64,000 nucleotides of DNA from a virus. Below the pieces are notes generated by a model that was given only the letters and a program-made list of their open reading frames with translations, did no database searches and had not been told where the DNA came from. The stretch lies in the IMG/VR virus record IMGVR_UViG_3300045988_180675, positions 1-64,000 of that record; one strand, written 5' to 3'. The first letter of the stretch is position 1; each line of letters begins with the position of its first letter. Below are positions 20,828 to 56,248 of this stretch, in pieces. Made by a program: the position numbers and the translations under genes.

Positions 20828-21099
20828 TTCTTCACCAAATACTTCTTCCCACGATAGGAAGCCGCCTTCTTTACATCTTTCGGTCTCTACCGTAACTAGA
20901 AAATATAAAACTTTATTTCTGGATCAATTTTAGAGTTTTTCAACTCAAGGTCTTACGGTTAACCTATTCCACTTCAACTCACTCTATTTCGACTTGTGCC
21001 ACACAATAAAGATTGTCGCTGAAGCTTCTGGATAAACAACATCCTAAAGGGAAATGCCCAACTGTCTTGCGTTGATACATCTATATAGGATTGATTGTG
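20828..21099 (-). ncRNA. candidate omega/reRNA-like guide RNA scaffold downstream of the tnpB-like gene
   Basis: 272-nt ORF-free, GC-richer tail directly 3' of the TnpB-like ORF. Multiple hairpins: GAGTT-gaaa-AACTC, CGGT-agag-ACCG, GAAG-gcgg-CTTC, CTTCC-tatcgtg-GGAAG. The position matches where TnpB-family omega RNAs are encoded. Confidence 0.4.
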
Positions 21100-22440
21100 T
21101 TAAAGACTTTTAACGGTGTCTTTATAACCTTGTCCACGTCTAGCGATAACATACGAGGCTCCGACGTGAACATTAAGCTTCATAGTTGGACAATAGAGTT
21201 TTTCTGCTAACCAAGATGTCCAGGCTGGGTTAACTTTTATTAGTGTTACTTTGTTTTGGTAGGCAGCACCTTCAATAATGTTAGTGAATTGCCGATAGGC
21301 TAAAGAATGAAGCATTTCATTATGCCGTCTGCTTTGTTTGGCTTCAGTTTTAGACCTTTTCGTTCCGAAGTCGAGATCTTCAATACAGATGTCTTTGCCT
21401 TTTTGATATGCTAATGTTGTTACATGATTCGCAATTTTTTGTAGATCTGTTTTGGTTTTATTTCCAGATCTAAAACGATAGGGTAGAAGTTGCGTTCTCA
21501 CCAAATGTCCATACTGATTAGTTTCCGATAATGTGACAAACCCTTTATTAAAATCTAAGCCAATCGTCCCATAGTCGGAACAGGTAAAGAAGTTATTTGT
21601 ATCTGCTTGAATTTCAAAGGTACAATATAAGTGATATCGACCATTCTCTTTGATGATCCTATAAGATAATGGACTATTCTTGTTTTTTAGAATGGATATG
21701 ATTTTATCTTTGTGATGATTGAAATAGATCTCTCCATAAATAAATTTGTCTCTAGTATTAGCTGAGTATTTTTTGAAATCCTTACGTAATTTGATCGTAA
21801 ATTGGTTATTCTTCCGATTGTATGTCAGCTGCAAGTTTTGGTTGCAACAAACCTCTTCCTTAGCCCCGACAAATATTATTTGGCTGTCACGTTGTTCAAT
21901 GAATCTATCGTAATTTTGTTTTAATAATCGCTTCGTGCCAAAGCAAAGTTTTAATCTACCTGATTCTAGTTGATAATTCAAATTAACAAGCTTCTGTTTT
22001 AGACGATTTAATTTAGCCTTTTTGGAAACAATTTTTGACCTTAGATTTCGTTGTTTGATTGGTGAAACGAGCGTTCCATCTTGAAGTAACCTTGAATTAC
22101 TGTTTCTCTTCTCAACTAATTTAGGAATGAGTTGCTCTTCAAGATAACTAATCTTATGCCTTAATTGATTTACTTCATATCGCTTTAGTTCTTTTAGCGA
22201 ATTAAAGCGTCCTTGAGCATCTAAAATAATTGAGTTCGCAGTCCTTTTAGTGATATCATAAGAACATTGTAAGTAAGCATTAAAATTGGACTTATTAAAA
22301 TTTTCTGAAGTTCTGAGAGTATAGAAAGTTTCACGTACTGCCTTAGCGTATTCACTACGAGAAGCTTCTATGTATTTGATTAGTTCCAAGTTATTCTTTT
22401 CGTGTAGCTGTGTTACTACTGTAAACTTACGCTTCTGCAT
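21100..22440 (-). CDS. tnpB: TnpB-like (IS200/IS605 accessory, RuvC-fold) protein with a degenerate C-terminal nuclease/Zn-finger region
   Basis: 446 aa with an AAAGGAG RBS. RuvC-I TIGLDFNKG, RuvC-II ICIEDLDF, NPAWTS block, C-terminal ASYVIARRG (compare NAAxNIxRRG). Only one Cys where CxxC..CxxC is expected. A His sits where I align the third catalytic Asp. No TnpA nearby. Confidence 0.75.
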   Translation of the reverse strand: MQKRKFTVVTQLHEKNNLELIKYIEASRSEYAKAVRETFYTLRTSENFNKSNFNAYLQCSYDITKRTANSIILDAQGRFNSLKELKRYEVNQLRHKISYLEEQLIPKLVEKRNSNSRLLQDGTLVSPIKQRNLRSKIVSKKAKLNRLKQKLVNLNYQLESGRLKLCFGTKRLLKQNYDRFIEQRDSQIIFVGAKEEVCCNQNLQLTYNRKNNQFTIKLRKDFKKYSANTRDKFIYGEIYFNHHKDKIISILKNKNSPLSYRIIKENGRYHLYCTFEIQADTNNFFTCSDYGTIGLDFNKGFVTLSETNQYGHLVRTQLLPYRFRSGNKTKTDLQKIANHVTTLAYQKGKDICIEDLDFGTKRSKTEAKQSRRHNEMLHSLAYRQFTNIIEGAAYQNKVTLIKVNPAWTSWLAEKLYCPTMKLNVHVGASYVIARRGQGYKDTVKSL

Positions 22441-22514
22441 TACGGCTCCTTTCTATTTAACAGTATTATCTAATCAAATTTTATCAAATAAAGTATAAAA
22501 AAAGAAGAAATAAT

Positions 22515-23141
22515 TTATATTTCTTCTTTTTCTTCTAATGCATCTTCCCAAGAAAGGATATATCCATTCTTGTCTCTTCTCGTTTCCACCCACCATAATC
22601 TTTCGTATCGGGCGTAGTCGTCATCCAATTGCGAGCGGTACAGGCGTTTCCCATTTTTCTCCTTAATGAATTTCATAAGTGGATTTTCGTCTGTAAAAGA
22701 GAAACTTCCATCGTCGTAAACATTATCGAGAATGTCTTCTTCACATTCATTGATGTCTGTGAACTTTGCATTGTACACTTTACCGTCCAAATATTCCTGG
22801 AATACAGTTAGGTCTTCGTTTACCAAGTCGATAAATTCGTCTTCATCCATCTTTTCTGTAGTAAATGCAAAACCTAGAACTTCTCCTTCAGGTTTTTCTG
22901 TGGACTTCACTGCCTGCAACTTTCCTGAGATTTCTGTGAAAGAAACCATTTGGAAATTTTCTGCGTCTTTCGGTAGTTCACGGTCCATCATCTTAAAGTG
23001 ATCTGAGATGAAGAAGATGTTGCGATCTTCTCTACAGTTTAGCGGACAAAATTCAACAAAATTTGCAATTGGGTTGATTGGAGTTTCCTCCTTTTTAATG
23101 ATTAAAACTTGCCCTTCTTGATTAACATAAATCTTTTCCAT
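22515..23141 (-). CDS. hypothetical acidic protein
   Basis: 208-aa ORF with a strong AAGGAGG RBS. N-terminus resembles that of 23158..23916. Confidence 0.55.
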   Translation of the reverse strand: MEKIYVNQEGQVLIIKKEETPINPIANFVEFCPLNCREDRNIFFISDHFKMMDRELPKDAENFQMVSFTEISGKLQAVKSTEKPEGEVLGFAFTTEKMDEDEFIDLVNEDLTVFQEYLDGKVYNAKFTDINECEEDILDNVYDDGSFSFTDENPLMKFIKEKNGKRLYRSQLDDDYARYERLWWVETRRDKNGYILSWEDALEEKEEI

Positions 23142-23157: not shown

Positions 23158-23916
23158 TTACTTGTAAATTTTCTCGAACTCTTCTACTGTTTCTTGAAAA
23201 GATAGGTACTTCTCGTGTGTACTGATAAATCTTTCAGATGAGATCACCCATTTGTTAGATGTGCATCCAAGTTCATCAAATACATCCTTTTGTAGTTCGT
23301 AATACTGGATGCCCTGCTTTCTTGGTAAATGCTTCATCAAATCGAAATACAAATGATCGTCGTCACTGTAGAGGTTCCCGATCGAATCGGAAGTTCCATC
23401 TGGGCGTTCCAATAGAGCGTAACATACAGAACCATTACAATATTCTGTATAATCTTCAAGATTCTTTTCTACGATATTGTAGAATTCTTCTTTGTTTTTG
23501 AGTGAGAAGTGTTCATCCTTTTTACTCAAGCAAGCAAATCCAGTCAAGGCTCCATTGATATGTGTTGAAAATCTTGATGTGCCATGTTGGAACACCAGTA
23601 TTGGAGCTACCCAAAACTTATCGCCATCATTGATACGATCGAATAATTTGTTAACGCCTAGGTTCTCACACTCATATTTTTCGATCAAATTTGGATAACC
23701 ATCAAGCTCTTCTTCATACCTTTCTTGTTCTTCTTTTGAAGTTTGAAGATTAGGATAAAGAAGTCCGTCTAGTCCTTCCCAATTGTCATTATCTGTCATT
23801 TTGTGATTACCACACGAAATGAATTTGATTGAATAACACTCTTCTTCTAATGGGTTTAGTGGTTCTGGGTCCTGTGATACCGTCAAAATCTCGTTGTTTT
23901 CGTTGATGTAAATCAT
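23158..23916 (-). CDS. hypothetical protein
   Basis: Start moved to MIYINENNEIL (ATG 23916, AGGAGG RBS). The track extension to 24081 would read through a terminator hairpin. Confidence 0.55.
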   Translation of the reverse strand: MIYINENNEILTVSQDPEPLNPLEEECYSIKFISCGNHKMTDNDNWEGLDGLLYPNLQTSKEEQERYEEELDGYPNLIEKYECENLGVNKLFDRINDGDKFWVAPILVFQHGTSRFSTHINGALTGFACLSKKDEHFSLKNKEEFYNIVEKNLEDYTEYCNGSVCYALLERPDGTSDSIGNLYSDDDHLYFDLMKHLPRKQGIQYYELQKDVFDELGCTSNKWVISSERFISTHEKYLSFQETVEEFEKIYK

Positions 23917-24029
23917 ATTTAATTTTCCTCCTATAGCCATTTTTGGCTCTATTATTTTCTGCCTTATTTGAATATTTTCTCCATGATCGTCAAATAAAGT
24001 CATATTTATTATGCGATACGAAAGAAAAT

Positions 24030-24829
24030 AAAAAAACCACCATACAGGTGGTAAAAGAGAGTGTTTGGAGATTTTAACCAAACTTATTCACCTTTGACAA
24101 CTCTAAACTACATAGCACAGAGGGCTTCCCCTTACTTACGACACCACTACAGATTGAGCCATACAGAATGATAACCTGAGCCTGAAGATGTACGGTCTTC
24201 GACTTTTATCACCAATCCCCGAAGGGATCCAAGCTGTAACAGGATTGATACCTGCCGTGTTCACTAACCATTCAGTCAAAAATAGTTTTTTCGCATTCTA
24301 CTTGTGCGGATCTTTCCAATTTGAACTGAACACGCTTTAGCTACTTACACCAACTTTCTGACGATTTATTTCGTATATATTTCTACATACGTTTTCTTGT
24401 GTTCTGCCACCTTGATTCGAATTTCCTACTAACTACATGGTTTTCGACGCCACTAGGTTTTAGGATTCTAGGGTAATGCTATTCACATTACCTTTCAATT
24501 ACGATTGGCACGTCTTTGTTGTGCTGTATCCTCATAGTATGTAGCACTAGATCCTTGATACTCCTACCTCTGTTTCGAGCGAAGAAGCTGTCCATACACT
24601 TCAATATATAGTATGGTCAATGGTTGGCTTAAAGTATCCTTTAAGTTGAGCCACATCATTCAGACCTATCCCAGAGCCATGGTCTTGGCTTTCGATTTCT
24701 CACACTGGGTTCAGTGCTACGCAGTTTAAAGTTGTCAAAGAACTTTAGCGACTGGCAATGATATGATAAAGTGAATCGCTAGATATCATTACCAAATTTC
24801 CGTCCACGTCATGTGGTATCGGTGCTACA
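24030..24829 (-). ncRNA. ~800-nt candidate giant structured ncRNA (GOLLD/ROOL size class or novel)
   Basis: No ORF of 60 aa or more in any frame. Promoter TTGACA(24864-24859)-17 nt-TAATAT(24841-24836). Terminator ACCACC-loop-GGTGGT plus U-run at 24052-24030. GC visibly above the flanks. C(UUCG)G tetraloop hairpin at 24214-24230. Perfect 7-bp hairpins at 24472-24492 and 24628-24645. 5'/3' closing helix 24812-24820 with 24110-24118. Confidence 0.6.
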
Positions 24830-24835
24830 TCTATG

Positions 24836-24864
24836 ATATTAACATAACATCATTTTACTGTCAA
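24836..24864 (-). promoter_or_regulatory. sigma-A type promoter of the large ncRNA
   Basis: TTGACA, 17-nt spacer, TAATAT. Confidence 0.6.
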
Positions 24865-24878
24865 TACATTTTTAGAAA

Positions 24879-25160
24879 TTATTTTAAATATTTTCTCTGA
24901 TGTTTAAATTCTGATGTTGGTGTGAAATTAGATGCCATGTCTCTAGCCTTCATGTCTTTTCTCATCTTCCCCTCTAATTGGGCTTCTTTTTGTGTTAAGG
25001 ATCTATCTAAGTGATCCACCAATTCTGATAGTCGAAAGCCCTGTCTTTCCAATATATTTTTCTGTAATTCATCTAAATATGGATGCAATTCTGTTGGACA
25101 TGTTTCTTTAATCACTTCGATTTCTCTACATACACCCATTTTGCTAAAATATTCTCTCAT
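24879..25160 (-). CDS. hypothetical protein
   Basis: 93-aa ORF with an AGGAAGGA RBS. Confidence 0.5.
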   Translation of the reverse strand: MREYFSKMGVCREIEVIKETCPTELHPYLDELQKNILERQGFRLSELVDHLDRSLTQKEAQLEGKMRKDMKARDMASNFTPTSEFKHQRKYLK

Positions 25161-26046: not shown

Positions 26047-27057
26047 TTAGTGGTTAAGTGACAAATTTTCAATATCCTTAACATTCCAAAGAACTATATA
26101 ATTTAATTTGTTTTTCTTTGCTGTTTCTCGTTTTTCTATATCACCAATACTCCATACTTTAACTGCTTTTTTATAATTCTCGCTAGTTTTAGCATGTTCT
26201 ATCCAAAGTGACAATTTTTCAACGTCTTCTACAGAATTCTTATCAAACCAGTGTTCTCCATGGTGCCAAAATCCATTATATTCAATAAAGGTATCAATTG
26301 ATTTTATATAGAAATCGCACTTATATGGATATCTTTCGCAAAAATACTCTCTAAAAACATCTTCTGCTCCAAATTCTAAAACCAATTTTTTATACAATAA
26401 TTCTTCAGGAATAGAAAAACTAAACGAATTATTTTTGTGCATTGTTAATGATTTTCTTTTTATCATTGCATCTGAACTAGCTATTTTTCGTATTTTTGCT
26501 CTTCCCCAATTAGTCTTTGTCCATGATGTTTCTCCGTAATTAGCAAGAGATGTGGTTGCTTTTTTCTGATTCACCTCATCAATATTCTCGCTGATTGCAT
26601 TCATAGCTTTTTCTCTAACTTCTGGCAACTGAAACAAAGATCTAACGCCATATTTATCCAAAAGTGTAGTTTCTATCTTCTCTTTTACCGACTCAGATTG
26701 AAACCCCCAAGGAACGCCATACTTCTCCATAAAAACCTCAGAAGTCTTCTCTTTTATCTGTTCAGATTTTGCTGGATAATTTACACCAAATAATTTTTGG
26801 TTCGTTTCTTCTCTTTTTCTTTTTGTCTTTTCGTCAATTGCGGAACATTTACAACTGCAATGTTTTGAGTATCCGTAATTGGTTCCCAGAAAAATAGTTT
26901 GGTTTCCACAAAAGCAAATCCCCTCATTGGGGGATTTTTTTAGATATTTATCATAATATTCTTTTACTGTGATATGGTGAGAGTTTCTAATGTGTCCCGA
27001 TAGACTTCTTTGGCTTTTGAATTCTTTCCCACATTCCTTACAAAGAAAATTACTCAT
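26047..27057 (-). CDS. C2H2 zinc-finger protein with a C-terminal Vsr/PD-(D/E)xK-like nuclease signature (homing-endonuclease-like)
   Basis: Start moved to MSNFLCKECGKEFKSQRSLSGHIRNSH (ATG 27057). Internal ~30-aa KYGV.. repeats. C-terminal CDFYIKSIDTFIEYNGFWHHGEHWF resembles the D..(I/V)E.nG..WH nuclease core. Confidence 0.45.
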   Translation of the reverse strand: MSNFLCKECGKEFKSQRSLSGHIRNSHHITVKEYYDKYLKKSPNEGICFCGNQTIFLGTNYGYSKHCSCKCSAIDEKTKRKREETNQKLFGVNYPAKSEQIKEKTSEVFMEKYGVPWGFQSESVKEKIETTLLDKYGVRSLFQLPEVREKAMNAISENIDEVNQKKATTSLANYGETSWTKTNWGRAKIRKIASSDAMIKRKSLTMHKNNSFSFSIPEELLYKKLVLEFGAEDVFREYFCERYPYKCDFYIKSIDTFIEYNGFWHHGEHWFDKNSVEDVEKLSLWIEHAKTSENYKKAVKVWSIGDIEKRETAKKNKLNYIVLWNVKDIENLSLNH

Positions 27058-27059
27058 AC

Positions 27060-27782
27060 TTAATATGTCCAATACGACAGGTATACTTCGGTACCAGTTG
27101 TTGAAGTACAAGTATACATAGCAATCGGACCTGCTGGATTGCTAGAATAGTATTCTCCGTTAGATTTTGTAACGGTGCCATAGTTGTGTGCATTCCAGTC
27201 TTCTGAAACTTTGTATAGTGTAACTACGGATCCATCTGGCTTATACCATGTTGCTGTTGAGGCATACTCGATTGCTGTGAAACCGAGATTCCAGTGGGCT
27301 CCAAAGATCGTCGGGTATCCTTCGCCAACCCAACAATCACCTCTATCTACAATATCTTGAAAGCCTCTGCTTTCCAACACCCATGATGTGCCACCGACAT
27401 ACAATCTTCCATAGTTGCCCATTGTCATTGCTGGAGGACTGTAAGTGTAGTCTGAAACGGTGTATCCTGAGTAGTTATTTGAGTAGTTATAGTTGCTATA
27501 GTTATTGTAAGAACTTTGTGCCGCTAGTGCTGCTTGACGTGCAGCTTCTTCGGCTTCCGCTTGTTCTTGAGCGATACGCTCTTGCTCAATACGTTCTTCT
27601 CCTGCCTTCACATCACTCTCAATGTCCTTGCAGGCGTTTTTCATTTCCGTACTATTGTTTAATGAAACGATAGTCGGTACTTCTGTAATAAAGCTTGTTG
27701 TATTTGATGCTGCTTTGATTGCGTCTAAACGCATATTTGGGTTAAAAAACAGTAGAATGGAAACTAATAATTTTGCAAACAT
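27060..27782 (-). CDS. secreted hypothetical protein
   Basis: N-terminal hydrophobic signal, Q/A/E coiled segment, Y/N/S-rich spacer, globular C-terminal domain. Confidence 0.5.
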   Translation of the reverse strand: MFAKLLVSILLFFNPNMRLDAIKAASNTTSFITEVPTIVSLNNSTEMKNACKDIESDVKAGEERIEQERIAQEQAEAEEAARQAALAAQSSYNNYSNYNYSNNYSGYTVSDYTYSPPAMTMGNYGRLYVGGTSWVLESRGFQDIVDRGDCWVGEGYPTIFGAHWNLGFTAIEYASTATWYKPDGSVVTLYKVSEDWNAHNYGTVTKSNGEYYSSNPAGPIAMYTCTSTTGTEVYLSYWTY

Positions 27783-28448: not shown

Positions 28449-28967
28449 TTACAGGGAATTTTCTTTTGATGTCTTTTTTAACATCAATATGCCTAATATA
28501 AACACAATCATGCTTCCGAATAGATATGCATGCATGCTTGAATGAATACCTGTTCCAATCTCATTCTTTTTGCTTGGAACGTTGTTTTGTGGCTCTGATG
28601 GATTTTTTTTATCCTTCTTAAATTCAATCTTTGTATACTTCTGGGCGTCATCATTTTTAGATAGGACGGCTTCTGCAACCATTTCTCCAGAATCGTTATT
28701 CATAACCATTACCTGTAGATGATATTTGTTTTCAGCATCATCCTTGCGGTAGATCTCGTATTTATAGTTTCCTAATTGCGTATATGATAGCTCGATTTCA
28801 TTTTTAATTTCCAGATTTAATCCTTCGCCTTCCAAGATTACGTCATCATAATCGGACTCAACAGGAATTTTAATGGTAACTTCCTGATCACTTGCTAACA
28901 CTGGAGTAGCAACTGAAAATAGAATTCCAAGTGCGATTAAGATCTTACTTAATGTTTGTTTCATCAT
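28449..28967 (-). CDS. small sortase-substrate protein, candidate basal/minor pilin
   Basis: Start at MMKQTLSK overlaps the sortase stop (ATGATGA). Signal peptide, ~120-aa domain, C-terminal EIGTG + TM + KKTSKENSL. Confidence 0.55.
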   Translation of the reverse strand: MMKQTLSKILIALGILFSVATPVLASDQEVTIKIPVESDYDDVILEGEGLNLEIKNEIELSYTQLGNYKYEIYRKDDAENKYHLQVMVMNNDSGEMVAEAVLSKNDDAQKYTKIEFKKDKKNPSEPQNNVPSKKNEIGTGIHSSMHAYLFGSMIVFILGILMLKKTSKENSL

Positions 28968-29668
28968 TTTTCTACCTCTTTTTTGTATTGTTCTTTCGTG
29001 ATTTCTTGTATTTTCCCTAGCAGTACACATCTATACAATGTGTTAGGTGTTTTACAGGTTGTTAATGCGATCAATTTATCTTCTTCTGTATATCCTCTTG
29101 TCTGGTTTGTCGTGTCCAGGGAGAATATTGTTTCGTCAGTTGCTTCTGTAGTGTCATACTTTGTAAACTCTATCTTATAAATATGTTCTTTACTTAATAT
29201 ATATCCAGTTTTATGTTTATCGAAGTATTCTTTATTCTCGTACTTGTCCAGAGCCCCAAACATATAGCCACGATCCATGTGGTGTCCGTAGAGAATGTTA
29301 TAGTTATCTGTGAAATCTTTTTTATTTTTAAAATCCAAGAAGATTGAGCCTGCAAGAGAATACTTCCCGTTGTAATCCTTGTTGATGTACTCTAAGTTAT
29401 CTTCGCCTTGCATAATCGGATAGTTCATGTTTGTATCTGGCACGTATAACCAAGCAGTTGCAAGTGGAGCATCTTCAAATGTAATTTCTTTTTCAGATAC
29501 TTTTGGAAGATACCCCACCTTTTGTTGTGCCTCTACTTGATGATAGATATTGTAGTTATCAAGCATAGAATATCCACCAATAAGCATGCATACGATACAA
29601 ACGAGAAGAATAGCATTATCATAGGCGTTATTTAGGTGTCTAAATATCTTATTGATGGAACTTCTCAT
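28964..29668 (-). CDS. srtB: class B sortase
   Basis: Collinear with S. aureus SrtB: NYPIMQGEDN..GSIFLDFKNK..NILYGHHM..MFGAL..YFDKHK, catalytic LTTC and a downstream R (YRCVLLG). Confidence 0.85.
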   Translation of the reverse strand: MRSSINKIFRHLNNAYDNAILLVCIVCMLIGGYSMLDNYNIYHQVEAQQKVGYLPKVSEKEITFEDAPLATAWLYVPDTNMNYPIMQGEDNLEYINKDYNGKYSLAGSIFLDFKNKKDFTDNYNILYGHHMDRGYMFGALDKYENKEYFDKHKTGYILSKEHIYKIEFTKYDTTEATDETIFSLDTTNQTRGYTEEDKLIALTTCKTPNTLYRCVLLGKIQEITKEQYKKEVEK

Positions 29669-29670
29669 AG

Positions 29671-30693
29671 TTATTCTGCTTCTACTTCTCTCTTCTTTTT
29701 GATGATCACGAATGCTACTACGCCACCAGCTAGAACTGTGGCTACAGCAGCCTTATTGTTGATCAAGATACCTGTAGGGATAACGCCTGACTTATCATTT
29801 GTATAACCAGTCTTGATCTTGTCTGAAGCACCTAATGTACCAGCTGTTTCGCCTTCTGCTACACCAGCAATCTTTGCTGTTGACTTATAACCATCGGCAT
29901 CTTCAGTAACAGTGTATTCAGCACCGTTGATCAATGATACCATCTTAACAGACTCGCCATCTGCTAGCTTAAATGTTGCAGTACCATTACCGTCACCGTC
30001 TGTAACAAGTGTTGTGTCGCCTAGTGTGTATGTAAAATTAGGGATTGCCTTCTTGATTTCGAGTGTAAACGTAAACTTCTTACTCTTATCACCTTGGTTT
30101 CCTGTAACCTTCTTCATGATTGTAATTTCGTCATCTGCTGATAACTTACCAGAGAATCCGTCCACCTTGTCATCAAGAGCATATTGTCCATCACCAGTTG
30201 CTTCTAATGCTGGGGCGTCTGTGCCTGTGTGTAGTAATGTTGCTGCAACCTTTAATGTACCACCGTCATCTACTACATATACGTCTAATGTACGTGTGTT
30301 ACCACTATCTACGACAGCGACGTTATCTTTTCCGCCTACTGTGTAACCGCCAGTGATAATGTAACGATAAATGCCTGGCTCTGTATAAGTACATGGGCTA
30401 AGATCGATTGTTCCTTCTGTGCCTTGAGTTAAATCTACATCAGCAATAGTAGGTGTTCCTACGCCAGCCTTGATGCCTTGTGTTGTTGCTGTTGCTGCAA
30501 CTGCAGTGCCTGGAGCGACTGTAGCTTTAAATACCTTTGCTCCTGCTGTACCACCTTCTGTAGTTAAAGTTGTGTTGAATGTTACATCACCACCTGTAAT
30601 TGGTGTGTAAGATGCAGCAAATGCTGTTGCTGTCGTTGCTCCAATTGCTAGAGCTGAAGCCGCTACGCTTCCGAGTAATTTCTTAATCTTCAT
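29671..30693 (-). CDS. major pilin, Spy0128/FctA (T-antigen) type
   Basis: Signal peptide, EPGIYRYIITG block, ITIMKKVTGNQGDKSKKFTFTLEI block. C-terminal sorting signal VIPTG + TM + KKKREVEAE (compare EVPTG of S. pyogenes pilins). Confidence 0.7.
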   Translation of the reverse strand: MKIKKLLGSVAASALAIGATTATAFAASYTPITGGDVTFNTTLTTEGGTAGAKVFKATVAPGTAVAATATTQGIKAGVGTPTIADVDLTQGTEGTIDLSPCTYTEPGIYRYIITGGYTVGGKDNVAVVDSGNTRTLDVYVVDDGGTLKVAATLLHTGTDAPALEATGDGQYALDDKVDGFSGKLSADDEITIMKKVTGNQGDKSKKFTFTLEIKKAIPNFTYTLGDTTLVTDGDGNGTATFKLADGESVKMVSLINGAEYTVTEDADGYKSTAKIAGVAEGETAGTLGASDKIKTGYTNDKSGVIPTGILINNKAAVATVLAGGVVAFVIIKKKREVEAE

Positions 30694-30735
30694 TTTCTTC
30701 TCCTGTTGCTTACTTTTTATGCGTGGAAGCTAAGC

Positions 30736-31221
30736 TTAGAAACCACGTCTTCGTGTCACGAAGAATACTTTCCCTTCGATATCGCTTTCTTTGATTGTTC
30801 CAAATTCTCTGCTATCACTTTCATCTTCTCTATAGTCATTTAGAACAAAGATTTCTCCTTCTGGAACCTTGATCGGATATTCTTTTTCACCTTTATTGGT
30901 GAGCGAATTTGTACTTTCGGCAGGTTGCATCCCATTTACCGTCAGTATTCCTTCTTTTGAGATATCCACTTCCTGTCCAGCCTTAGCGATCACTCGGTAG
31001 AGTCTGCCGTTATATATTACCACATCGCTTAACTGTACTTCCTTATCAAATTTTTCGATGACAACTAGGTCCCCGTCTTTAATGGACGGGAACATGTTGT
31101 TGTCGTAATAGATTGTGGCTGTTACCACAAATTTATTTAAAAGTACCAGAGCGATGCATGTAACCAAAATTCGTTGGACGAATCCCCATATTTGCCTGTT
31201 TTTTCTCTCTTTTTTTACCAT
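30736..31221 (-). CDS. SipA/LepA-like signal peptidase I homolog lacking the Ser/Lys dyad (pilus assembly chaperone type)
   Basis: SPase I fold blocks are present (NDYREDESDSRE compare GDNRxxSxDSR). The box B catalytic Ser is Asn (DNNMFPS versus GDSMxPT). The box D Lys is Tyr (LYRVIA versus VKRIIG). Confidence 0.75.
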   Translation of the reverse strand: MVKKERKNRQIWGFVQRILVTCIALVLLNKFVVTATIYYDNNMFPSIKDGDLVVIEKFDKEVQLSDVVIYNGRLYRVIAKAGQEVDISKEGILTVNGMQPAESTNSLTNKGEKEYPIKVPEGEIFVLNDYREDESDSREFGTIKESDIEGKVFFVTRRRGF

Positions 31222-34200
31222 TTATTCTTCTTCCGTCTTTTTCTTTTTCTTGATCAACAAGAGTATGATGCCACCAATCACAATCAGTGCAATTCCAATT
31301 TGTGATAGTTCAACATTTGTTGGCACTACCATTCCCTTAGTGTTTACGAACTTGATTTCAGTGGAAGCGTCTTCTTCAGCAATTTCAGCGGTAATTTCTT
31401 TTCCTTCTTGCTTGCTATCTTGCTTGCCGATCACTTCTGCAGTTGTTGCGTAATCATTTTCATCTTCTACAACATTAGCTTCCTTGATCCATGTGCCTTG
31501 AGCAAATCCTGATAATGTAGCCTTTTCACCATCTGCAAGCTTGAAGTTATAGTATCCTTCAGCATCTGCTGTTAATTCACTATGATTTCCAGCCGTATCA
31601 ATCAGTGTTAGGCTACCAGTATATGGATTACTATTGTTATCCGTTAATTTAGCCTTGAAGTTAAACTTATCGTTCTTATTTCCTGCATTTCCTCTTACAT
31701 CTTTCGATACGCTAATAACTTGTGCTTTTTCGTTATTGCATGTCATATAAATGTAATCTTCTTGCTTAGGATTCATCCATGCTGTTGAATAAGCAATTCC
31801 AACTTCTCTATTTTCAGTCACTTCACCTGTCATATCATTGTTCCAGTTTGGAATGTAGCCGTCAGATTCTTCCTCTGTGACCATGATGTCAGCGTATTTT
31901 GGAATACCTGCAACTTCTACGTTTTCACCATTTTTTAGAGTAAATGAGAATGCAGTGACATCTCCTTGATACTTAACTGTTTTTCTTGTTTGCTCTCCAT
32001 CTTCATCCGTATGAATGAGTGTTACAACATCTTGTGAGCGTAAGCCTCGAATACTTCCTGTGAACTGGAAATCTTCGCTAGAGGATGAATTAGTAAGGTT
32101 CTTTGCGTATGTTGCTGAGTATACATCTGAAATATCATTTGTTAATACAGCTCTATTTGTTTTACCTGTTTTCGCTGTGTAAACCTTTGAAGTGAAATCT
32201 TGGTTTGTCTTGCCGCCTTCATTGTTGATGAGGTTGTCATCTTCGAAGATCTTAATTGATGGCGTACAAACAATCTTATATCCATCCACCAATGACTTAA
32301 CATCTGTTTCTTTTACCTTGTATTTAACCTGATCAACACCTTCAAAGACAAACTTTACTGCAATTGTTTTTGAAATGTTTGTCGATACAGAGGCTAGTCC
32401 GTTTTCGTCAGATGTGAAAGTTTCTTCGTATTGGGTTGCTTGGTTTACATATTTGTATGTTGTATTAGGTGTTAATCCGCTAAATTCTACAGTGATATTA
32501 AAGTATGTATCTTCGTGTGTTCCAGTGTATGTTTCTGGCAAATGCTTTTCAACCACAATCTCTGTCGTGTTTGCTGTTGTTGGTGGAACATCCTTTTTAT
32601 TTGTGAATACAACTTCTTTATCAGTATCTAATACTCCTGATGTATTTTCTGCACCTGTTTGTGTCCAACCAGTCTGTGGTTGTTCTTGGATTGTGTAGTT
32701 TACGTTTACTGGTAATTCAATTTCCGTTGACGAATTTCCATTGATTCTTACAACTGCTTCGCCATTATTGAAGATTACGTTATTAAACTTTTGAACACCA
32801 GAAACACCTTCGCCTGTTAATTTAATGTTGAAGGCAAATGATGTTCCATCCTCGATATCAACATTCTTTGTAATTTTCAGCTTTCTTGTCGTTGTAACGA
32901 CATTGTTGTATTCATTTATAACTGTTGTCTCAAACTTACCTGTCTTATCGTCATAATTTATGATTGAAACCTTTTTGCCATTGATTTCTTTCGTTGCATC
33001 TACACGTCTGTAGTTCGGATTGTCATCTTCAACCAAATAGTGTTCTTGTGTCTTGTCAATGATTGGCATGACGTATGTCATTGAGCCATCTGAATTCTTG
33101 ATCCACTTGCTATCATCTGTTTCGTAATAGCGTCCACCATTTGCGGTTAAATCGAATCCCTTTGCCTTGGTTTCTCGAACCCAATACCCAGCGATATTAT
33201 TCATATCCGTAGGTTTTGTCGCATACTTTTCTTCTGCTACTGGTGAACCGTTTGTGTTGTATTTCAGGATCCATCTTCCAGTGTATTTATCTGATTCTTC
33301 AAACAGGTTAAAAGCTGATGTTAATCCATAACCAATGTTGTTGAATACAGTATTTTCTGATGTCTTAACGATTTGGAGTCCCTTTTTTCTTACAACTACA
33401 TTGTCACTTGGAAGAAGATTTGGATCTGAATAATTTGAGAAGTCAAAACTTGTTTGTGATCCAAGACCATAGATATAATCTACAACCATATTAGCTAGAT
33501 ATGGTTTTCTTCCGTTTGCATCCACATGATTCGGTTGTGGCATTTTAGATGTATCCAGATTTGCATATAAAGAGAATGCTCCAGAGAATCTTCCTGTAAA
33601 TTGAGAAAAATCAAATTTAGCACCAAGAATCTCGGCGTTTTGCATGAATCCTCCGTAGTCAGGATATGATGAAGGATTTATATTTTCTTGTGTAATTCCT
33701 GTTAAATCAATTACATGCTTCGTATTTTTATATACTTGGAATGCAAAGTTTGCATTCTCTATTTTTGATATTCTCTGTCTTGAAAATAGATCTTTAAAGT
33801 CAACTGAGGAGCCACTAAACATGGAATCAATGCGAGTTACTTCTGTAAGATCTAATGAGGAAAGATTTACTGTTAAGCTTTCGTCACCTGCATTTGGATC
33901 CCAAGCTGACATAAACATCTCTCTAGCATTTCTTGGTTGCATCTTTAGATTTTCCAAGCCTTCAATTTCTTTTACGGAGGCTCTTGCAAACATTGCCTCA
34001 GTGTTACCAAACTTCAACTTGGACCAATTCTCTCCAAATTTAATCTTTCTTGCACGTGCTCCTCTAAACAAGAAATTTAGACCTACATAATCAGAGAAGT
34101 TGGCTCCATCTGGAGTTTCTGTTCTTCCTTTTGCGTCCAATACTGTTACATGAGATAAATCAATCATGGCAGCAGATCCAGCGAATCTCGAAACTTCTTT

Positions 34201-34650
34201 TATATTGTCGTTCATTAGTTCGCTGAAGAATATCCAAGCCCAACCATTTAAAGTGCGATGTGGAATATAATCGCTTGGACAGATTCCTATTGTTTTATCA
34301 AAATCTAAGGTTGAAATTCCATTGAACCATGGATACTTTGTTTCTCTATCCTGCCTAATTTGTTCCATAGCACCAAAAGCCCAAGCTGGCTTTATTGCTT
34401 CTAAGCTTCCACTTCCTGCTACAAATCTTGTGTAGCCGTCTTCATAAACTTCAATTTTAGCTGTTGTTGCTACGCCGTCTGAAAACTGGTCCAGAGGCAA
34501 TGATATCTTCAACTCTCCATGTGCAGCTAGTGGTAATTCAGAAGAAAGAATAGGACTACTACCACTTCCTTCTTCTGCGTGTACCGAACTAGGCAATAGA
34601 GTAATGATAAATAATGTTGCTATAAACAGTTTCAATATTTTTTTTATCAT
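31222..34650 (-). CDS. giant pilus-locus adhesin: BspA/DUF285-like repeat head plus Cna-B/pilin-like stalk domains
   Basis: Start moved to MIKKILKLF (ATG 34650, AGGAAAGGAAA RBS) with a signal peptide. The N-terminal third has MF..a......LdLs..d.s.vt.m..MF type repeats. C-terminal VVPTN + TM + KKKKKTEEE. Confidence 0.75.
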   Translation of the reverse strand: MIKKILKLFIATLFIITLLPSSVHAEEGSGSSPILSSELPLAAHGELKISLPLDQFSDGVATTAKIEVYEDGYTRFVAGSGSLEAIKPAWAFGAMEQIRQDRETKYPWFNGISTLDFDKTIGICPSDYIPHRTLNGWAWIFFSELMNDNIKEVSRFAGSAAMIDLSHVTVLDAKGRTETPDGANFSDYVGLNFLFRGARARKIKFGENWSKLKFGNTEAMFARASVKEIEGLENLKMQPRNAREMFMSAWDPNAGDESLTVNLSSLDLTEVTRIDSMFSGSSVDFKDLFSRQRISKIENANFAFQVYKNTKHVIDLTGITQENINPSSYPDYGGFMQNAEILGAKFDFSQFTGRFSGAFSLYANLDTSKMPQPNHVDANGRKPYLANMVVDYIYGLGSQTSFDFSNYSDPNLLPSDNVVVRKKGLQIVKTSENTVFNNIGYGLTSAFNLFEESDKYTGRWILKYNTNGSPVAEEKYATKPTDMNNIAGYWVRETKAKGFDLTANGGRYYETDDSKWIKNSDGSMTYVMPIIDKTQEHYLVEDDNPNYRRVDATKEINGKKVSIINYDDKTGKFETTVINEYNNVVTTTRKLKITKNVDIEDGTSFAFNIKLTGEGVSGVQKFNNVIFNNGEAVVRINGNSSTEIELPVNVNYTIQEQPQTGWTQTGAENTSGVLDTDKEVVFTNKKDVPPTTANTTEIVVEKHLPETYTGTHEDTYFNITVEFSGLTPNTTYKYVNQATQYEETFTSDENGLASVSTNISKTIAVKFVFEGVDQVKYKVKETDVKSLVDGYKIVCTPSIKIFEDDNLINNEGGKTNQDFTSKVYTAKTGKTNRAVLTNDISDVYSATYAKNLTNSSSSEDFQFTGSIRGLRSQDVVTLIHTDEDGEQTRKTVKYQGDVTAFSFTLKNGENVEVAGIPKYADIMVTEEESDGYIPNWNNDMTGEVTENREVGIAYSTAWMNPKQEDYIYMTCNNEKAQVISVSKDVRGNAGNKNDKFNFKAKLTDNNSNPYTGSLTLIDTAGNHSELTADAEGYYNFKLADGEKATLSGFAQGTWIKEANVVEDENDYATTAEVIGKQDSKQEGKEITAEIAEEDASTEIKFVNTKGMVVPTNVELSQIGIALIVIGGIILLLIKKKKKTEEE

Positions 34651-34663
34651 TTCATTTCCTTTC

Positions 34664-37600
34664 CTATAGTCCCTCGTCTGGTTCTGCGATCTCTGGGACT
34701 TCTTCATTATTACTTGTGTTATTTTCCGCCTGTTGTTTTGAAGCAGAACTCGTTGCGTCATCAAGATTTGTGTAGACTCTAATCTTTGGAATGTAGTTAT
34801 CTGGGTTTCCGTTTGTCCACTTCTTTGTGATGACGAGTGAATCTGTTGCGGCTGGCATGTTTTTAACAACATATTTGCCATCAACCTGTTCCATATCTAG
34901 GATGTACGTTCCATCGTTATTTACTACTAAAGTGTATTCCTTTGGATCCTGTACAAACTTCTTTTTATCGCTTGATACAGGGTCTTGGTTTTCTCTAATT
35001 GTATAAGTTCCTACTGGAATATTTACACTTACTTTACCCGTTCCATAATCTGGAGAAACCTTTGTGTTTACTGGTACGCCTTCATAGTCTGTACCTGTAA
35101 TTTGGAAGCTGATATTTCCCCATATAGGTTGGTTTGTTTCTCCATTTAGCTTATACCACTCTACACGAGCGAGTCTATTGTAGTTGAATACAGTGTCAAT
35201 CTTTGTGTTTGTTGTCTTGTTTGTGATCGTTACAACACCATAATCATCAATCTTAACTTCTAACTCGTCTTTTAGCTTCATAAATTCTCTAGGTGTATTT
35301 GTTTCTTTGAGCTTATAAGTTCCCTTTTCGATATTCTTGAAGATAACCTTGCCATTTTTATCTGATGTTACTTTTTCGATTAAATCATTTCCATAATCGG
35401 ATGTACCAGATAGCGTGAATTCCACACCTTCGATTGGAGCAGAGATTCCTTCTTTATTAGGGAAGGTCTTCTTCTCAAATACAATATTTGCATGAACACG
35501 AGGAGTATTGAAGATTGTGATCTCTGAAACTTCTTTATTGTCGATTAACACTCTTCCATTTTCTGTGATCTCGATAACGTGCTTTTCTTCGTTTAGGAAG
35601 TAATCTGGAGTCGTTTCGTATTCTGTCAAAGTATACTTTCCAACTGGAATCTTCTTAAATTTGATGACTCCCTTGCTATCCGTTAGTTTGATCTCATCTA
35701 CATACTCGCCATAAGCACTTCTTCCACTTAGTTTAAATTGGATTCCAGGGATAGGTCGTCTTGTTGTGGCATCTTGCTTATTTAGCTGGAAGTTGCCCAT
35801 GATCTTATAAGTTGTTGTTGTATAACCGTTGAAGATATAGTTCGATGATTCTGCACCAGCTTCTCCAATAGCGGTTGCATTAGCATAAACGACGTTATAG
35901 TTCTTATATACTGTTTCGATCACTGGGAGATTTTCTGGGGCTCTCATATTCAGTATTGCGACAAGTGATTGTGACTTTCCGAGATATCCGATGGAATTAT
36001 CACTCTTTCTTCTGCAGTCAATCGCAATCGTTTTAATTGTTGAAAGATCTGAATTTGCATCTAATCTTGTAAAATTTTCTAATTTTTCTTCTGGTGTTAG
36101 ACCTCTTAGTGTTTCTAAGTCAATATCTTCTGTTGAACCGTATAATACTGGGGCAAATCCTAGTCGCTCCATTTGTGTCGTATCAACGGATTGAAGTATT
36201 CCTCTCCAATTTGGTTTCGCACCATCTGGAGTTGTGTATTTTTCAATATTATCAAACAAGATAATATCCTTTGTGTTTGATGTTGCTGAGTTTGCAAATG
36301 TCAGTTTATAGGAATAATCCTCATTTGGAGCCACGATTGTATCTGCTGTGAACTTTCCATCTGTAGAATTCTTAACAAGCTTCTTTAGACCAGATGAGAA
36401 GTATACCAGTGTAGACAAGTTATATGTTGTATCTGCATAGATAAATCTATTTCCTTTATCTGTTGTTAAGTTACTCATTTCCTTTTTGTATGATCTAAGA
36501 ATAGAGGCATCGTCAGCTGTTCCGTCAGTAATAGCACTATTGCCTGTTTCAAAAGCAACTGGGTTATACACGTTTCCACCATAATCTCTTATGTTGTCAT
36601 AAGGGAATAATGTCTTGAATTTTAGAATTGGATGTTCCATCTGATCGGAGGTTTCGAAGATAACAAGTGTACGTCCTGTATTCTTGTAATTTTGCTTTGT
36701 TGTTACTGTGACGTTGTATGTCTTGCTGCCATCTTTTTCTTCTAGTGTAACGTTGTTTTCGTCGACAATTAAACCTGCTGGCATCAAATCAAACCACTTA
36801 CCACCATCTTGTGGGATTGACGATACGTCCGTGCTTGATGTTCTTGCCGTTTCTTCAGTATCAATGACCCATGTTAATTCATATTGCTTCTTAATACGGT
36901 TATTTAATACTTCTGCAACGTTCTTACGAATTCTTTCATCGGTCTGTGTCTTTCTTGCGAAATCGTATTCTAATGGTGCTGTATAGTTGAAGATCTCTTC
37001 GCCATTTGCCTTTCGCATGTAACCATGAACTTCAGATTGGACAATAATGTCTTCCTTGTTGGCAACAAAAGCGTCAACCTTTGGCGAATGTTTTAGTTCA
37101 TAGTTTGAACCTGCTAAAATCTCAGTAAAGTAATATGGGTTTTTGGATACCAACTTATAGGCAATTACATTGTTATCAAACTTCAGGTTGTTACCAGAAG
37201 AAGTTAATCCTTCTTTTATGATATTGTATTGATTCTTTGCTACATCATAGTCTGCAACATGCACATATTCTGAGCTTTGATTATCGTATTTCGCATATAC
37301 TTCTACAAACGCATTTTCTGGTGTAAAAAATGGATTCGGTTTGAATTTGTTGTATGTAGAATCATATTTTGCTTCTATAAATCTTGGGTTTAATGCAACG
37401 TTTTGAATCTGATAGTCTTCAGAAGTTAAGTTGTCAATAATACTTCCTGTTTCTTTGAGCTTGATTCCGTCTACAAACTGCTCATAGATGACGTTTTGCT
37501 TAAAGTAGTTTTCTGGGAGTCTTTCTTTTCCATCTTCTACTGTGAAATACTCTGGCATTCCGTAAATGTAGTATCCAAAATCAAGATTGTTATATGTATT

Positions 37601-38782
37601 TAATTTTCCGCTTTGGAAATCTTGTAGATCGTATCTTGAATACTCACTTAGCTTTACTCCTACTGAACTCCAGTTTTGTTGGATACTGTCTTTATCTACA
37701 CGGAAGATGTTATCTCCGTATTGAAGAGAAATAAAGTTTCCTTCTTTTACCGACCATGGATCCTTGAAATAATTGATGTCTACAGTTGTGGTTTGCTCCA
37801 TTGGCTCATCCTGGTGATCAATACCTTCTACGATAAACTTGTTAGTTGTTCTAATCGAAACTGTTTGGTCATCTTTATATTCAGATTTTGGAAATCTATA
37901 GAGAATAGAATCAATTCTGTCGATAAATTGATAACTGTTTGTTTCACTGTTATTATCGACCCAGCCGTTTGTTCCAATGTTGTATTTGTATGGAACATAC
38001 GTCTTTGAACTATCATTTGCATCTACGGCAGTAGATTCGATTGTAAACTTGTATGGTTGGTTACCTCTTGTTACTGATTTAAACTGCAGTTCAGAATAGA
38101 AGTATGCATCTGCATCAGCTGGCTTTTCTCCCCAAGTATCATCCCATTCCTTGAATACATCTCCTACAATGGCTCCCCTTACGCCTTCAATGTTTGCGTA
38201 GGTGTTGATTGTGATCTGTTGTAACTCATTTGAGGATGTTAGCTGTCCTCCTGCTGTATCAAGCTCTACTTTTGCGTTTACATGTTCTGCTGACATTGAC
38301 ATATCTGTATATTCGCTAGCCTTATCCGTTAATTGGTAGGCGTATTCGAAGTTATATGTCTTACCAGATGGGACTGGGCGTCTATTTGAAATAACGACTT
38401 CTCCATCAATAATTTCATACATCCATAGTGATGTTACCTCTTCGCCCTGGGCAGTTGCATCTTCGACTTCCTTTTTGGACGGGATAGAAATCTTGAACGT
38501 ATCACCAATAGAACCATCACGCTTAGTGAAGATCGTTGCTGGCAGTTTTAGTCTTGCTGTAGGAATTTTCTCTGTTCCACTGATTGAAAACTCCGTCGTG
38601 TATTTGAAAGAACGTTTTGCCTCGTTTTGTGTTGGGGCGTAAGTAACTTCATCTGCTGTTGTTTGAAATGATTCTATTGCATTCGTAGAGTTAGATGTAA
38701 CGTCTTCTGCATTTACTATGCGTGGTGTTACGAGTGTTGCAATGCAACTTAATGCTAAGAGTTTTTTGATTAAATTCTGCAT
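34664..38782 (-). CDS. giant secreted adhesin with Cna-B/SpaA-type domains and no C-terminal sorting signal
   Basis: 1372 aa with a signal peptide. Several prealbumin-like repeats (GIQFKLSGRSAYGEY..TDSKGVIKFKKIPVGKYTLTEYETTPDYF; GVEFTLSGTSDYGN..SDKNGKVIFKNIEKGTYKLKETNTPREF). Ends ..EEVPEIAEPDEGL with no LPxTG-like motif or TM. Confidence 0.75.
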   Translation of the reverse strand: MQNLIKKLLALSCIATLVTPRIVNAEDVTSNSTNAIESFQTTADEVTYAPTQNEAKRSFKYTTEFSISGTEKIPTARLKLPATIFTKRDGSIGDTFKISIPSKKEVEDATAQGEEVTSLWMYEIIDGEVVISNRRPVPSGKTYNFEYAYQLTDKASEYTDMSMSAEHVNAKVELDTAGGQLTSSNELQQITINTYANIEGVRGAIVGDVFKEWDDTWGEKPADADAYFYSELQFKSVTRGNQPYKFTIESTAVDANDSSKTYVPYKYNIGTNGWVDNNSETNSYQFIDRIDSILYRFPKSEYKDDQTVSIRTTNKFIVEGIDHQDEPMEQTTTVDINYFKDPWSVKEGNFISLQYGDNIFRVDKDSIQQNWSSVGVKLSEYSRYDLQDFQSGKLNTYNNLDFGYYIYGMPEYFTVEDGKERLPENYFKQNVIYEQFVDGIKLKETGSIIDNLTSEDYQIQNVALNPRFIEAKYDSTYNKFKPNPFFTPENAFVEVYAKYDNQSSEYVHVADYDVAKNQYNIIKEGLTSSGNNLKFDNNVIAYKLVSKNPYYFTEILAGSNYELKHSPKVDAFVANKEDIIVQSEVHGYMRKANGEEIFNYTAPLEYDFARKTQTDERIRKNVAEVLNNRIKKQYELTWVIDTEETARTSSTDVSSIPQDGGKWFDLMPAGLIVDENNVTLEEKDGSKTYNVTVTTKQNYKNTGRTLVIFETSDQMEHPILKFKTLFPYDNIRDYGGNVYNPVAFETGNSAITDGTADDASILRSYKKEMSNLTTDKGNRFIYADTTYNLSTLVYFSSGLKKLVKNSTDGKFTADTIVAPNEDYSYKLTFANSATSNTKDIILFDNIEKYTTPDGAKPNWRGILQSVDTTQMERLGFAPVLYGSTEDIDLETLRGLTPEEKLENFTRLDANSDLSTIKTIAIDCRRKSDNSIGYLGKSQSLVAILNMRAPENLPVIETVYKNYNVVYANATAIGEAGAESSNYIFNGYTTTTYKIMGNFQLNKQDATTRRPIPGIQFKLSGRSAYGEYVDEIKLTDSKGVIKFKKIPVGKYTLTEYETTPDYFLNEEKHVIEITENGRVLIDNKEVSEITIFNTPRVHANIVFEKKTFPNKEGISAPIEGVEFTLSGTSDYGNDLIEKVTSDKNGKVIFKNIEKGTYKLKETNTPREFMKLKDELEVKIDDYGVVTITNKTTNTKIDTVFNYNRLARVEWYKLNGETNQPIWGNISFQITGTDYEGVPVNTKVSPDYGTGKVSVNIPVGTYTIRENQDPVSSDKKKFVQDPKEYTLVVNNDGTYILDMEQVDGKYVVKNMPAATDSLVITKKWTNGNPDNYIPKIRVYTNLDDATSSASKQQAENNTSNNEEVPEIAEPDEGL

Positions 38783-46397: not shown

Positions 46398-47261
46398 CTA
46401 ATTTCTGTTATATCCGAAGGTTCTTGTCTTGAAAACATCTTTCCAATAATTTTCTCGTGCATAGATACGTGCTGGTTGGGTATTCTTTGGGAAGATCTCA
46501 AGAAGCGTGTAAGTAAAATTTTCAATGAAGTAGTCTTCGCCTTCATTTTCTAATAGTTCTTTTAATCCTTTGTTTCCGCCTGTAAACGAGGTTTTGTAAT
46601 CGTTCCATCTTTGTAAGATGCCGTCCTTGCCACTTGCAGATCCGATATATAACTTTCCGTTTCGTGTATCAGTGATGCAGTAAATTCCTTTAACACCAGA
46701 TAGTGCTGCTCTGTAGTCTGCATATCGAACGCCATCAATCATGGATTTTAATGTTTTGAATGGTAGATGCACATTTTCGAAGCCGTTAAACTTAATTGGT
46801 TCGTAGATGTTAGGCAGAATTTCTGCCACTTCGATATTTTTAATCATATTTTCTGCACTAAAAATATATCTGGAGTAGGTATTCCCTTTGTGATAGTGGA
46901 TGATTAGTCGCCCGATTAGGCTACTATATTCAGGTAATTCGTCGTGTCCACACGTCCCAATGTTGTCGGCATCTGGAATTGATGTTATCTTACCAGCTGA
47001 TACTAATAACCACTTATCATCACTTTCCTGTAATCTTACAAAACCGAAGCATAGCTGCCCGTTCGCAGTGAAGTTTCGACTCTTTCCCTGGTGAGAATGA
47101 TATGTGAAATCTGTATTTCTATCATTTGGATCACTCTCATACCAATCTAAAAAGTGCGTTCTTCCTTGCCAACCCATGTTTAAGCCGATCTTGGTGTTTG
47201 CAATTTGATTCTTTGTTAAGTGTAAAATATCGTTTAGTTTTAATTTCTTGTCATCGTTCAT
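46398..47261 (-). CDS. GIY-YIG nuclease-domain protein (homing-endonuclease-like)
   Basis: C-terminal GIYCITDTRNGKLYIGSA..ILQRWNDY..RENYWK..GYNRN. Start moved to MNDDKK (ATG 47261). Confidence 0.7.
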   Translation of the reverse strand: MNDDKKLKLNDILHLTKNQIANTKIGLNMGWQGRTHFLDWYESDPNDRNTDFTYHSHQGKSRNFTANGQLCFGFVRLQESDDKWLLVSAGKITSIPDADNIGTCGHDELPEYSSLIGRLIIHYHKGNTYSRYIFSAENMIKNIEVAEILPNIYEPIKFNGFENVHLPFKTLKSMIDGVRYADYRAALSGVKGIYCITDTRNGKLYIGSASGKDGILQRWNDYKTSFTGGNKGLKELLENEGEDYFIENFTYTLLEIFPKNTQPARIYARENYWKDVFKTRTFGYNRN

Positions 47262-47319
47262 ATTTGTTTTCTCTTTCTTTATCATATAACAGTATATCAT
47301 ATTTTTACAAAAAAATCAA

Positions 47320-56211: not shown

Positions 56212-56248
56212 TTTACTTTTCCTCTTTTCTTTCTTTTGAATATTGTGT

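Follow-up and report, generated by a model that had tools for sequence, protein, structure and literature searches.

ROOL is a family of large, ornate bacterial RNAs that self-assemble into RNA-only cages, and few other natural RNAs are known to build cages without protein that exceed the ribosome in size. In the solved cases, ROOL folds into a flat monomer and assembles without protein into closed cages: the env-120 and Enterococcus faecalis RNAs form octamers and that of Ligilactobacillus salivarius a hexamer, and the variable linker is disordered, inside the solved cage (PMC12286853, PMC12990946). The usual context of ROOL, tRNA arrays and prophages, is frequent but not obligatory, and ROOL also occurs outside prophages (Weinberg 2017, PMC5737381). 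The L. salivarius RNA is a megaplasmid-borne, highly expressed and stable lncRNA, about as abundant as 16S rRNA; it is non-essential, and its deletion lowers the copy number of the megaplasmid (Cousin 2017, PMC5643018). The locus described here, which does not have the usual tRNA or prophage context, resembles the L. salivarius lncRNA in that a ROOL appears to be carried by a very large extrachromosomal replicon, and not by a phage tRNA island. It differs from it in that no DNA similarity could be detected in the plasmid collection (BLASTN of the locus and of the surrounding 20-kb stretch against phage and plasmid collections gave no match). GOLLD is likewise a large and ornate RNA; it is found in phages and mobile elements, builds RNA-only cages, and has a length near that of the primary transcript predicted here. 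Its fold and motifs differ, however, and its model gave no match to the locus even at E ≤ 1. That a large mobile element of a Gram-positive carries a ROOL would not surprise a specialist. The family is known, and what is new is a divergent lineage in an unusual context.

The carrier also has a described counterpart. Inocles are giant extrachromosomal elements of oral Streptococcus, for which the study PRJEB6997 was mined; they are circular, of ~245-395 kb, with a G+C content of ~32% (24% in the delta group), and the paper that describes them mentions no non-coding RNA (PMC12340149). The window (the whole stretch of DNA that was analysed, 64 kb in length) comes from human oral (saliva) metagenomes of the same study, and the contigs, of 180-206 kb, break in short-read assemblies. 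As in Inocles, IS elements, a sortase, a signal peptidase (Peptidase_S26) and LPXTG-type adhesins are present and phage structural genes are not: no capsid, portal, terminase or tail family was found among the 55 scanned window ORFs. About 16 of these ORFs have a Pfam family and most are without any family; scans of isolate genomes with two proteins, the 252-aa product of the neighbouring gene and the TnpB, also gave no relative. In contrast to Inocles, the G+C content of the window is 36% (versus ~32%), and the contig of a relative is filed as viral in IMG/VR. The identification of the carrier as an Inocle-type element, drawn from the published description, is circumstantial.

In the window, 962 bp separate the stop of a 93-aa ORF (24879-25160, minus strand) from an RBS-supported ATG at 23916, in agreement with the ~960-bp gap of the preliminary description. 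The absence of any ORF of at least 60 aa from 24082-24878 was confirmed as well, the largest there being of 50 and 47 aa, and the ORF list and the coordinates bear out that ORF 23158-24081, which begins with TTG, would run through a terminator. The G+C content of the RNA (0.41) is above that of the flanking genes (0.35), as had been noticed, and that of the whole window is 0.36. The features of the locus, in the direction of transcription, are:

24836-24864, minus strand: sigma-70-type promoter, with -35 TTGACA, a 17-nt spacer and a TG-extended -10 TAATAT
24746-24827, minus strand: lineage-specific 5′ accessory domain of ~85 nt, outside the Rfam model (RNAalifold and pair counts)
24711-24741, minus strand: P1, 5′ strand (MFE fold and covariation)
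24102-24733, minus strand: ROOL RNA core, positions 1-574 of model RF03087
24472-24492, minus strand: hairpin mapped to P7, of 7-8 bp versus 4 bp in the Rfam consensus
24417-24447, minus strand: L8 loop UCGAA (24447-24443) and junction UUCGA (24421-24417), complementary to each other
24276-24335, minus strand: variable linker, with a 13-nt insertion relative to the model
24167-24213, minus strand: long 3′ hairpin, mapped to P16-P18 (helices 34 and 35)
24091-24121, minus strand: P1, 3′ strand (MFE fold and covariation)
24064-24082, minus strand: trailer hairpin UUUGG...CCAAA, between P1 and the terminator
24026-24052, minus strand: intrinsic terminator, ACCACC-loop-GGUGGU (24052-24036), then a U-run

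The promoter, read on the minus strand from 24864 to 24836, matches at 10 of 12 positions and places the predicted transcription start at ~24832-24829. Promoter-like sites are not enriched at the locus (five found versus 5.3 expected in shuffles). Among the 15 members of the lineage to which the window belongs, the -35 hexamer and the TG do not vary, unlike the spacer, and the -10 is intact in 14, the remaining one (L095) having TAACAT. The terminator is conserved in 12 members, and in three it is swapped for a different GC hairpin with a T-run. Both signals had been located in the preliminary description, and both are kept or functionally replaced in the relatives. Together they predict a minus-strand transcript of ~800 nt, roughly from 24831 to 24028, so that the earlier proposal of an RNA with its own promoter and terminator finds support in conserved signals. 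The predicted 795-nt RNA folds with -235.9 kcal/mol (z -6.3 versus shuffles), and the complementary plus strand with -206.2 kcal/mol (z -3.7).

The search with Rfam covariance models that had been proposed as a check was performed with cmscan. ROOL (RF03087) matched 24733-24102 on the minus strand over all 574 model positions, with 187.1 bits and an E value of 1.8e-40; the threshold for membership was the curated gathering score of 99.1 bits together with full model length. GOLLD, OLE, HEARO, raiA and the group I/II introns gave no match at the gathering score in the window, and a permissive search (E ≤ 1) of 23900-25000 yielded, besides ROOL, just a chance mir-2 match at E = 1. GOLLD, OLE, HEARO, raiA and the introns were therefore rejected, as far as the models can see. 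Thus, of the guess that the RNA belongs to the GOLLD or ROOL class, the second half stood, with a full-length match at nearly twice the gathering score, and the first did not; nor was the fallback of a possible new class borne out. The match supports the assignment of the locus to ROOL, an already known family.

All consensus ROOL helices are visible in the covariance-model alignment, and the family motifs are found in order: AACCCAGUG, the GGAUAC loop, GUGC and AAGUAGC, followed by CUGAAUG..GUGAA, UCAAUCC, GCUCAG, UGGCU and GGGGAAGCCC. As aligned, 121 of the 153 model pairs are canonical and 32 are non-canonical, and part of the latter are 1-nt register slips (several, in the 3′ hairpin and P6); GGUGAUAA/UUAUCAUU in the 3′ hairpin, for example, form a perfect 8-bp stem. 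Because the imposed alignment shifts several helices by 1 nt, the helices were re-derived with RNAalifold. For those mapped to P4 and P5, pairing in the register of the model is poor (41-56%), and these two helices may be truly different.

From 5′ to 3′ the RNA would consist of the lineage-specific hairpin domain, a 30-bp P1, the ROOL core, the trailer hairpin and the terminator. Nearly all 15 members share the same first ~20 nt of the transcript. The 5′ domain has three helices in all: it is closed by UAGC (24827-24824) with GCUA (24749-24746), and contains a short hairpin (24822-24800) and a long 12-bp hairpin (24795-24752), in which 5 of 12 pairs are changed on both sides with pairing kept. 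The closing helix P1 is ~14 bp longer than in the Rfam model, and shows five double-changed pairs and 98% pairing (helix 6, alignment columns 145-175 with 774-804). The P7 hairpin carries four inserted nt per side relative to the model and is paired in 100% of cases (helix 20). The linker, of ~60-75 nt, is poorly conserved and takes up most of the indels among relatives; after it comes the conserved flank CUGAAUG (24275-24269). In the long 3′ hairpin, four pairs of helices 34 and 35 are changed on both sides; the hairpin includes the internal-loop motif GCUCAG (24181-24176) and an apical loop, CCGUACA (24195-24189), which holds the self-complementary GUAC (24193-24190). The trailer position keeps a hairpin even in three relatives with a different trailer.

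Most structural elements of the preliminary description were found again: the description holds for the UUCG hairpin (24230-24214) and for the 7-bp hairpins (24492-24472 and 24645-24628), and the heptamer GUAGCAC or its complement occurs three times in the 64-kb window, always within the locus. The place given for the third copy was 10 nt off, since it lies at 24822-24828 and not at 24812-24819, and consequently the 9-bp closing helix drawn with 24812-24820 uses 24822-24830 instead. The helix was rejected as drawn; its true position is 24830-24822 with 24118-24110, and the helix that matches the model and covaries is P1, 24741-24711 with 24121-24091. Given G.U tolerance, the invariant 5′ end AUGUAGCAC (24830-24822) could pair with the 3′ strand of P1 in all relatives, and the pairing is sterically possible, so that an alternative conformer is possible; since this helix uses the invariant 5′ end, it shows no compensatory evidence.

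Scanning IMG/VR for ROOL motifs returned 72 loci (L003-L074). Fourteen distinct relatives of the window locus were recovered from oral and other metagenomes, on contigs of up to 206 kb, and the carrier elements appear in many human oral metagenome assemblies. L006, on a 178-kb contig of IMG/VR, is 90% identical over promoter, leader, core and terminator, and another 12 distinct close relatives came from a metagenome scan. The relatives also preserve synteny with the 93-aa and 252-aa genes. No other segment of the neighbourhood is as well conserved as the ROOL core, with 91-96% nucleotide identity: for the four flanking genes the nucleotide identity is 65-89%, and the downstream 252-aa protein shows 50-53% amino acid identity in 14 relatives and 78% in one. 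The neighbours thus evolve several times faster than the RNA, which argues that the RNA itself is what selection preserves. The 252-aa protein, at ~51% identity beside an RNA of 91-96%, is an unusually fast-evolving neighbour, and a scan of IMG/VR with it returned nothing because it is too divergent.

Covariation was analyzed on an alignment (A4) of 15 sequences, the window and its relatives, from which the Rfam-derived structure is independent. With this structure 80.2% of the cells pair, and 12 pairs (43 cells) are changed on both sides, versus 6.8 and 13.0 in shuffles; the observed number of pairs was reached by 1 of 500 shuffles and that of cells by 0 of 500, and slid controls gave 0-4 pairs. 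With the RNAalifold structure, 24 pairs (87 cells) are double-changed, versus 14.9 and 29.2 in shuffles, and 99.2% of the cells pair, a percentage that is inflated because this structure was drawn from the same sequences. The window and L006 alone differ by seven double changes, versus ~0.9 expected. Three findings had been named beforehand as speaking against a structured RNA, namely the lack of a discrete transcript, homologues with a conserved ORF, and homologues without covariation. Within the reach of sequence data, none of the three refutes it: double changes exceed shuffles for the Rfam-derived structure, and there is no conserved ORF. In the 15-sequence alignment the variable columns are distributed over the codon phases as 59/50/39 (p = 0.13), i.e., without codon periodicity, and the indels measure 1, 2, 4, 5 and 6 nt, those of 1, 2, 4 and 5 nt being common and frameshifting. 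A coding region was rejected on these grounds. The comparison of relatives shows, within the reach of an alignment, that the RNA fold is under selection.

The 15 members of the lineage, the window included, score 181-200 bits against RF03087, whereas 20 other ROOLs tested score 248-352 bits, and no intermediates were found between the two. No tRNA is present in the 64-kb window or in 143 kb around 13 relatives; in contrast, all 20 of the other ROOL loci tested have tRNAs, sometimes with tmRNA, within flanks of 1.7-13.8 kb. Judged by score and gene context, the lineage is a discrete, divergent and tRNA-independent branch of ROOL. It shares with the rest of the family the full-length model match, the order of helices and motifs, the L8-junction pairing, the variable internal linker, and its residence on a mobile element of a low-GC Gram-positive. 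It departs from other ROOLs not only in its lower score and the lack of nearby tRNAs, but also in having its own promoter and terminator, an extra ~85-nt 5′ domain, a 30-bp P1, a longer P7, and an L18 loop of 7-9 nt with GUAC in place of UCGCU, UAGCU or GACG. ROOL is therewith found also as a discrete and strongly conserved lineage beyond phage tRNA islands, on very large mobile elements.

The contacts by which ROOL cages assemble were then compared; we infer the mapping of the cryo-EM names P7, L8, L18, B4 and B6 onto the Rfam model. The pairing of L8 with the junction was a 'pseudoknot' in the annotation of 2017, and by cryo-EM it is the intermolecular bridge B4. In the window, this site has UCGAA/UUCGA in place of the consensus UGGCA/UGCCA, and other ROOLs have UGGUA/UACCA, UAGCA/UGCUA, UGACA/UGUCA, UUGAC/GUCAA and others (a regular expression caught 12 of 73, and the rest of the alignment was read by eye). 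Within the lineage the pairing is kept in all 15 members, being either invariant or retained at 4 of 5 bp (helix 16). As read from these alignments, the complementarity of B4 is retained through compensatory changes.

L18, as mapped, forms the symmetric bridge B6. Its GUAC is found in every one of the 15 members, with changes in the loop flanks and in the stem, and the loop measures 7-9 nt in the lineage versus 4-5 nt in 70 other ROOLs; a 4-nt palindrome arises by chance in ~1 in 5 loops of 7 nt. In the 72-locus IMG/VR scan, the L18 classes of other ROOLs are UCGCU (32 loci, five of them scored as GUCGCUA), GACG (23) and UAGCU (10), counts in which a few loci folded differently. These classes have in common a self-complementary centre, GC, AGCU or CG (ACGU in three loci), and the switching between them resembles that reported, between GC and CG, for a kissing loop of GOLLD. 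The L18 classes might supply the covariation said to be lacking for the ROOL bridge B6. The lineage is thus a source of natural variation for quaternary contacts, with B4 compensated and L18 switched to another self-complementary sequence.

By analogy with the solved ROOLs, a flat monomer is the probable fold of the RNA, and copies of it would self-assemble, protein-free, into a closed hexamer or octamer. The contacts would be the L8-junction kissing pair UCGAA/UUCGA and possibly the self-complementary L18 loop (GUAC), and the variable linker would lie inside the cage. The longer P7 and the different L18 could alter the stoichiometry of the cage, if the solved structures are a guide. On present evidence, we consider it very probable that the locus is a free-standing ROOL gene, in which cage assembly is deduced from the solved members and a role for the replicon is speculative. 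What the sequence comparisons establish is that the RNA is a member of the family, that its fold is under selection and that its transcription signals are conserved.

The competing explanation that deserves most weight, although it is improbable, accepts a genuine ROOL but has it act as a monomer or as a protein-bound RNP, for example one that binds the product of a neighbouring gene, instead of as an RNA-only cage. The 5′ domain, the longer P7 and the enlarged L18 would then be signs of lost or changed quaternary contacts, and the discreteness of a branch scoring 181-200 bits, the extra 5′ domain itself, an L18 of 7-9 nt where 70 other ROOLs have 4-5 nt, and the conserved synteny with the 93-aa and 252-aa genes can all be read in this way. 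However, B4 complementarity is kept by compensatory change and GUAC is invariant; moreover, all three solved ROOLs assemble without protein (PMC12286853, PMC12990946), and a 252-aa protein with ~51% amino acid identity is unlike a tightly co-evolving RNP partner. That the locus is instead a new class of giant RNA, unrelated or superficially similar to ROOL, we regard as the least credible of all: its score is below that of other ROOLs and several model helices are mis-registered, but the model is matched over its full length (E 1.8e-40) with a score nearly double the curated cut-off, the conserved motifs all follow in order, and the covariation follows the ROOL-derived structure.

The position of the RNA on the same strand as the 252-aa gene and directly upstream of it would suit a long structured 5′ leader that regulates in cis the gene starting at 23916. 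Against this stand the conserved intrinsic terminator (24052-24026) that intervenes, the divergence of the downstream protein (~51% identity versus 91-96% for the RNA), and the fact that ROOL elsewhere is not tied to the 252-aa gene; a leader was rejected and has a very small probability. Equally slight is the chance that the locus is a decaying, non-functional relic of ROOL or a region coding for small proteins, for which the low covariance-model score and the ORFs of 47-50 aa could be invoked, since it is the best-conserved segment of its neighbourhood, with many compensatory changes, and has no codon periodicity and frameshifting indels.

As for the function of the free-standing ROOL, the RNA probably serves its giant plasmid-like carrier, e.g., in maintenance or copy number, a speculation modelled on the L. 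salivarius megaplasmid; the locus would be the second link of ROOL to a megaplasmid-like replicon, after L. salivarius. A tRNA-linked role, suggested by the phage contexts of ROOL, is probably not played here, which is likewise speculative. A more specific reading would make the lineage a distinct, tRNA-independent ROOL subclass that is a conserved part of the core of the Inocle-type elements of oral streptococci and acts in replicon maintenance or copy number. The extra 5′ domain, together with altered contacts at the apical P7 and at the equatorial L18 with GUAC, would lead to a cage of different stoichiometry or to a different partner. We offer this reading tentatively and with more doubt than belief; if true, it would provide a tractable system, abundant in humans, for assigning ROOL a function.

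Some relatives differ around the RNA. Five of 15 (L080, L085, L086, L091 and L092) carry an insertion of 170-190 nt between the P1 3′ strand and the trailer hairpin (alignment A4 columns 807-1001; e.g., L085 6408-6600), which by this position would be co-transcribed with ROOL. The insertion has no Rfam match, its covariation among the five relatives is weak and not convincing, and its 3′ end AGTTGCCAATG resembles the flank AGTTGTCAAAG. In L092, the 5′ part of ROOL that corresponds to window 24636-24720 is present in an extra 85-nt copy (2326-2410, 91% identical), located ~70 nt upstream of the promoter of ROOL. A RAGATH-18 RNA (71.5 bits) is present in the flank of L095, at 227-292.

The 252-aa protein downstream of ROOL (23158-23916, minus strand) is without a family match. 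Further along the minus strand lies a TnpB-like ORF of 446 aa (21100-22440) with an IS605-orfB-I omega RNA directly 3′ to it (20886-21091, 192 bits). The TnpB and omega RNA unit, of ~1.6 kb (roughly 20891-22530), is missing from the otherwise syntenic L006 and is found elsewhere in L080 and L090, so that the IS seems active in this element family. Two homing-endonuclease-like genes are located at 26047-27111 and 46398-47300 (both minus strand); one is of the zf-C2H2 and DUF7487 type (PHROG 3339) and the other of the GIY-YIG type, and the zf-C2H2/DUF7487 gene is present in some relatives and not in others, as expected of a mobile gene. The window also encodes a UvrD-type helicase, a dUTPase and an RNase H. 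Finally, genes for a SecY paralogue, a sortase, a signal peptidase and very large adhesins with SpaA, Cna_B, DUF7601 and SSSPR-51 domains occupy 6726-8015, 28964-31221, 31222-38782 and 53887-56289 (all minus strand). They look like a self-contained module for the export and anchoring of surface proteins, in which ORFs 31222-34884 and 34664-38782 overlap by ~220 nt.
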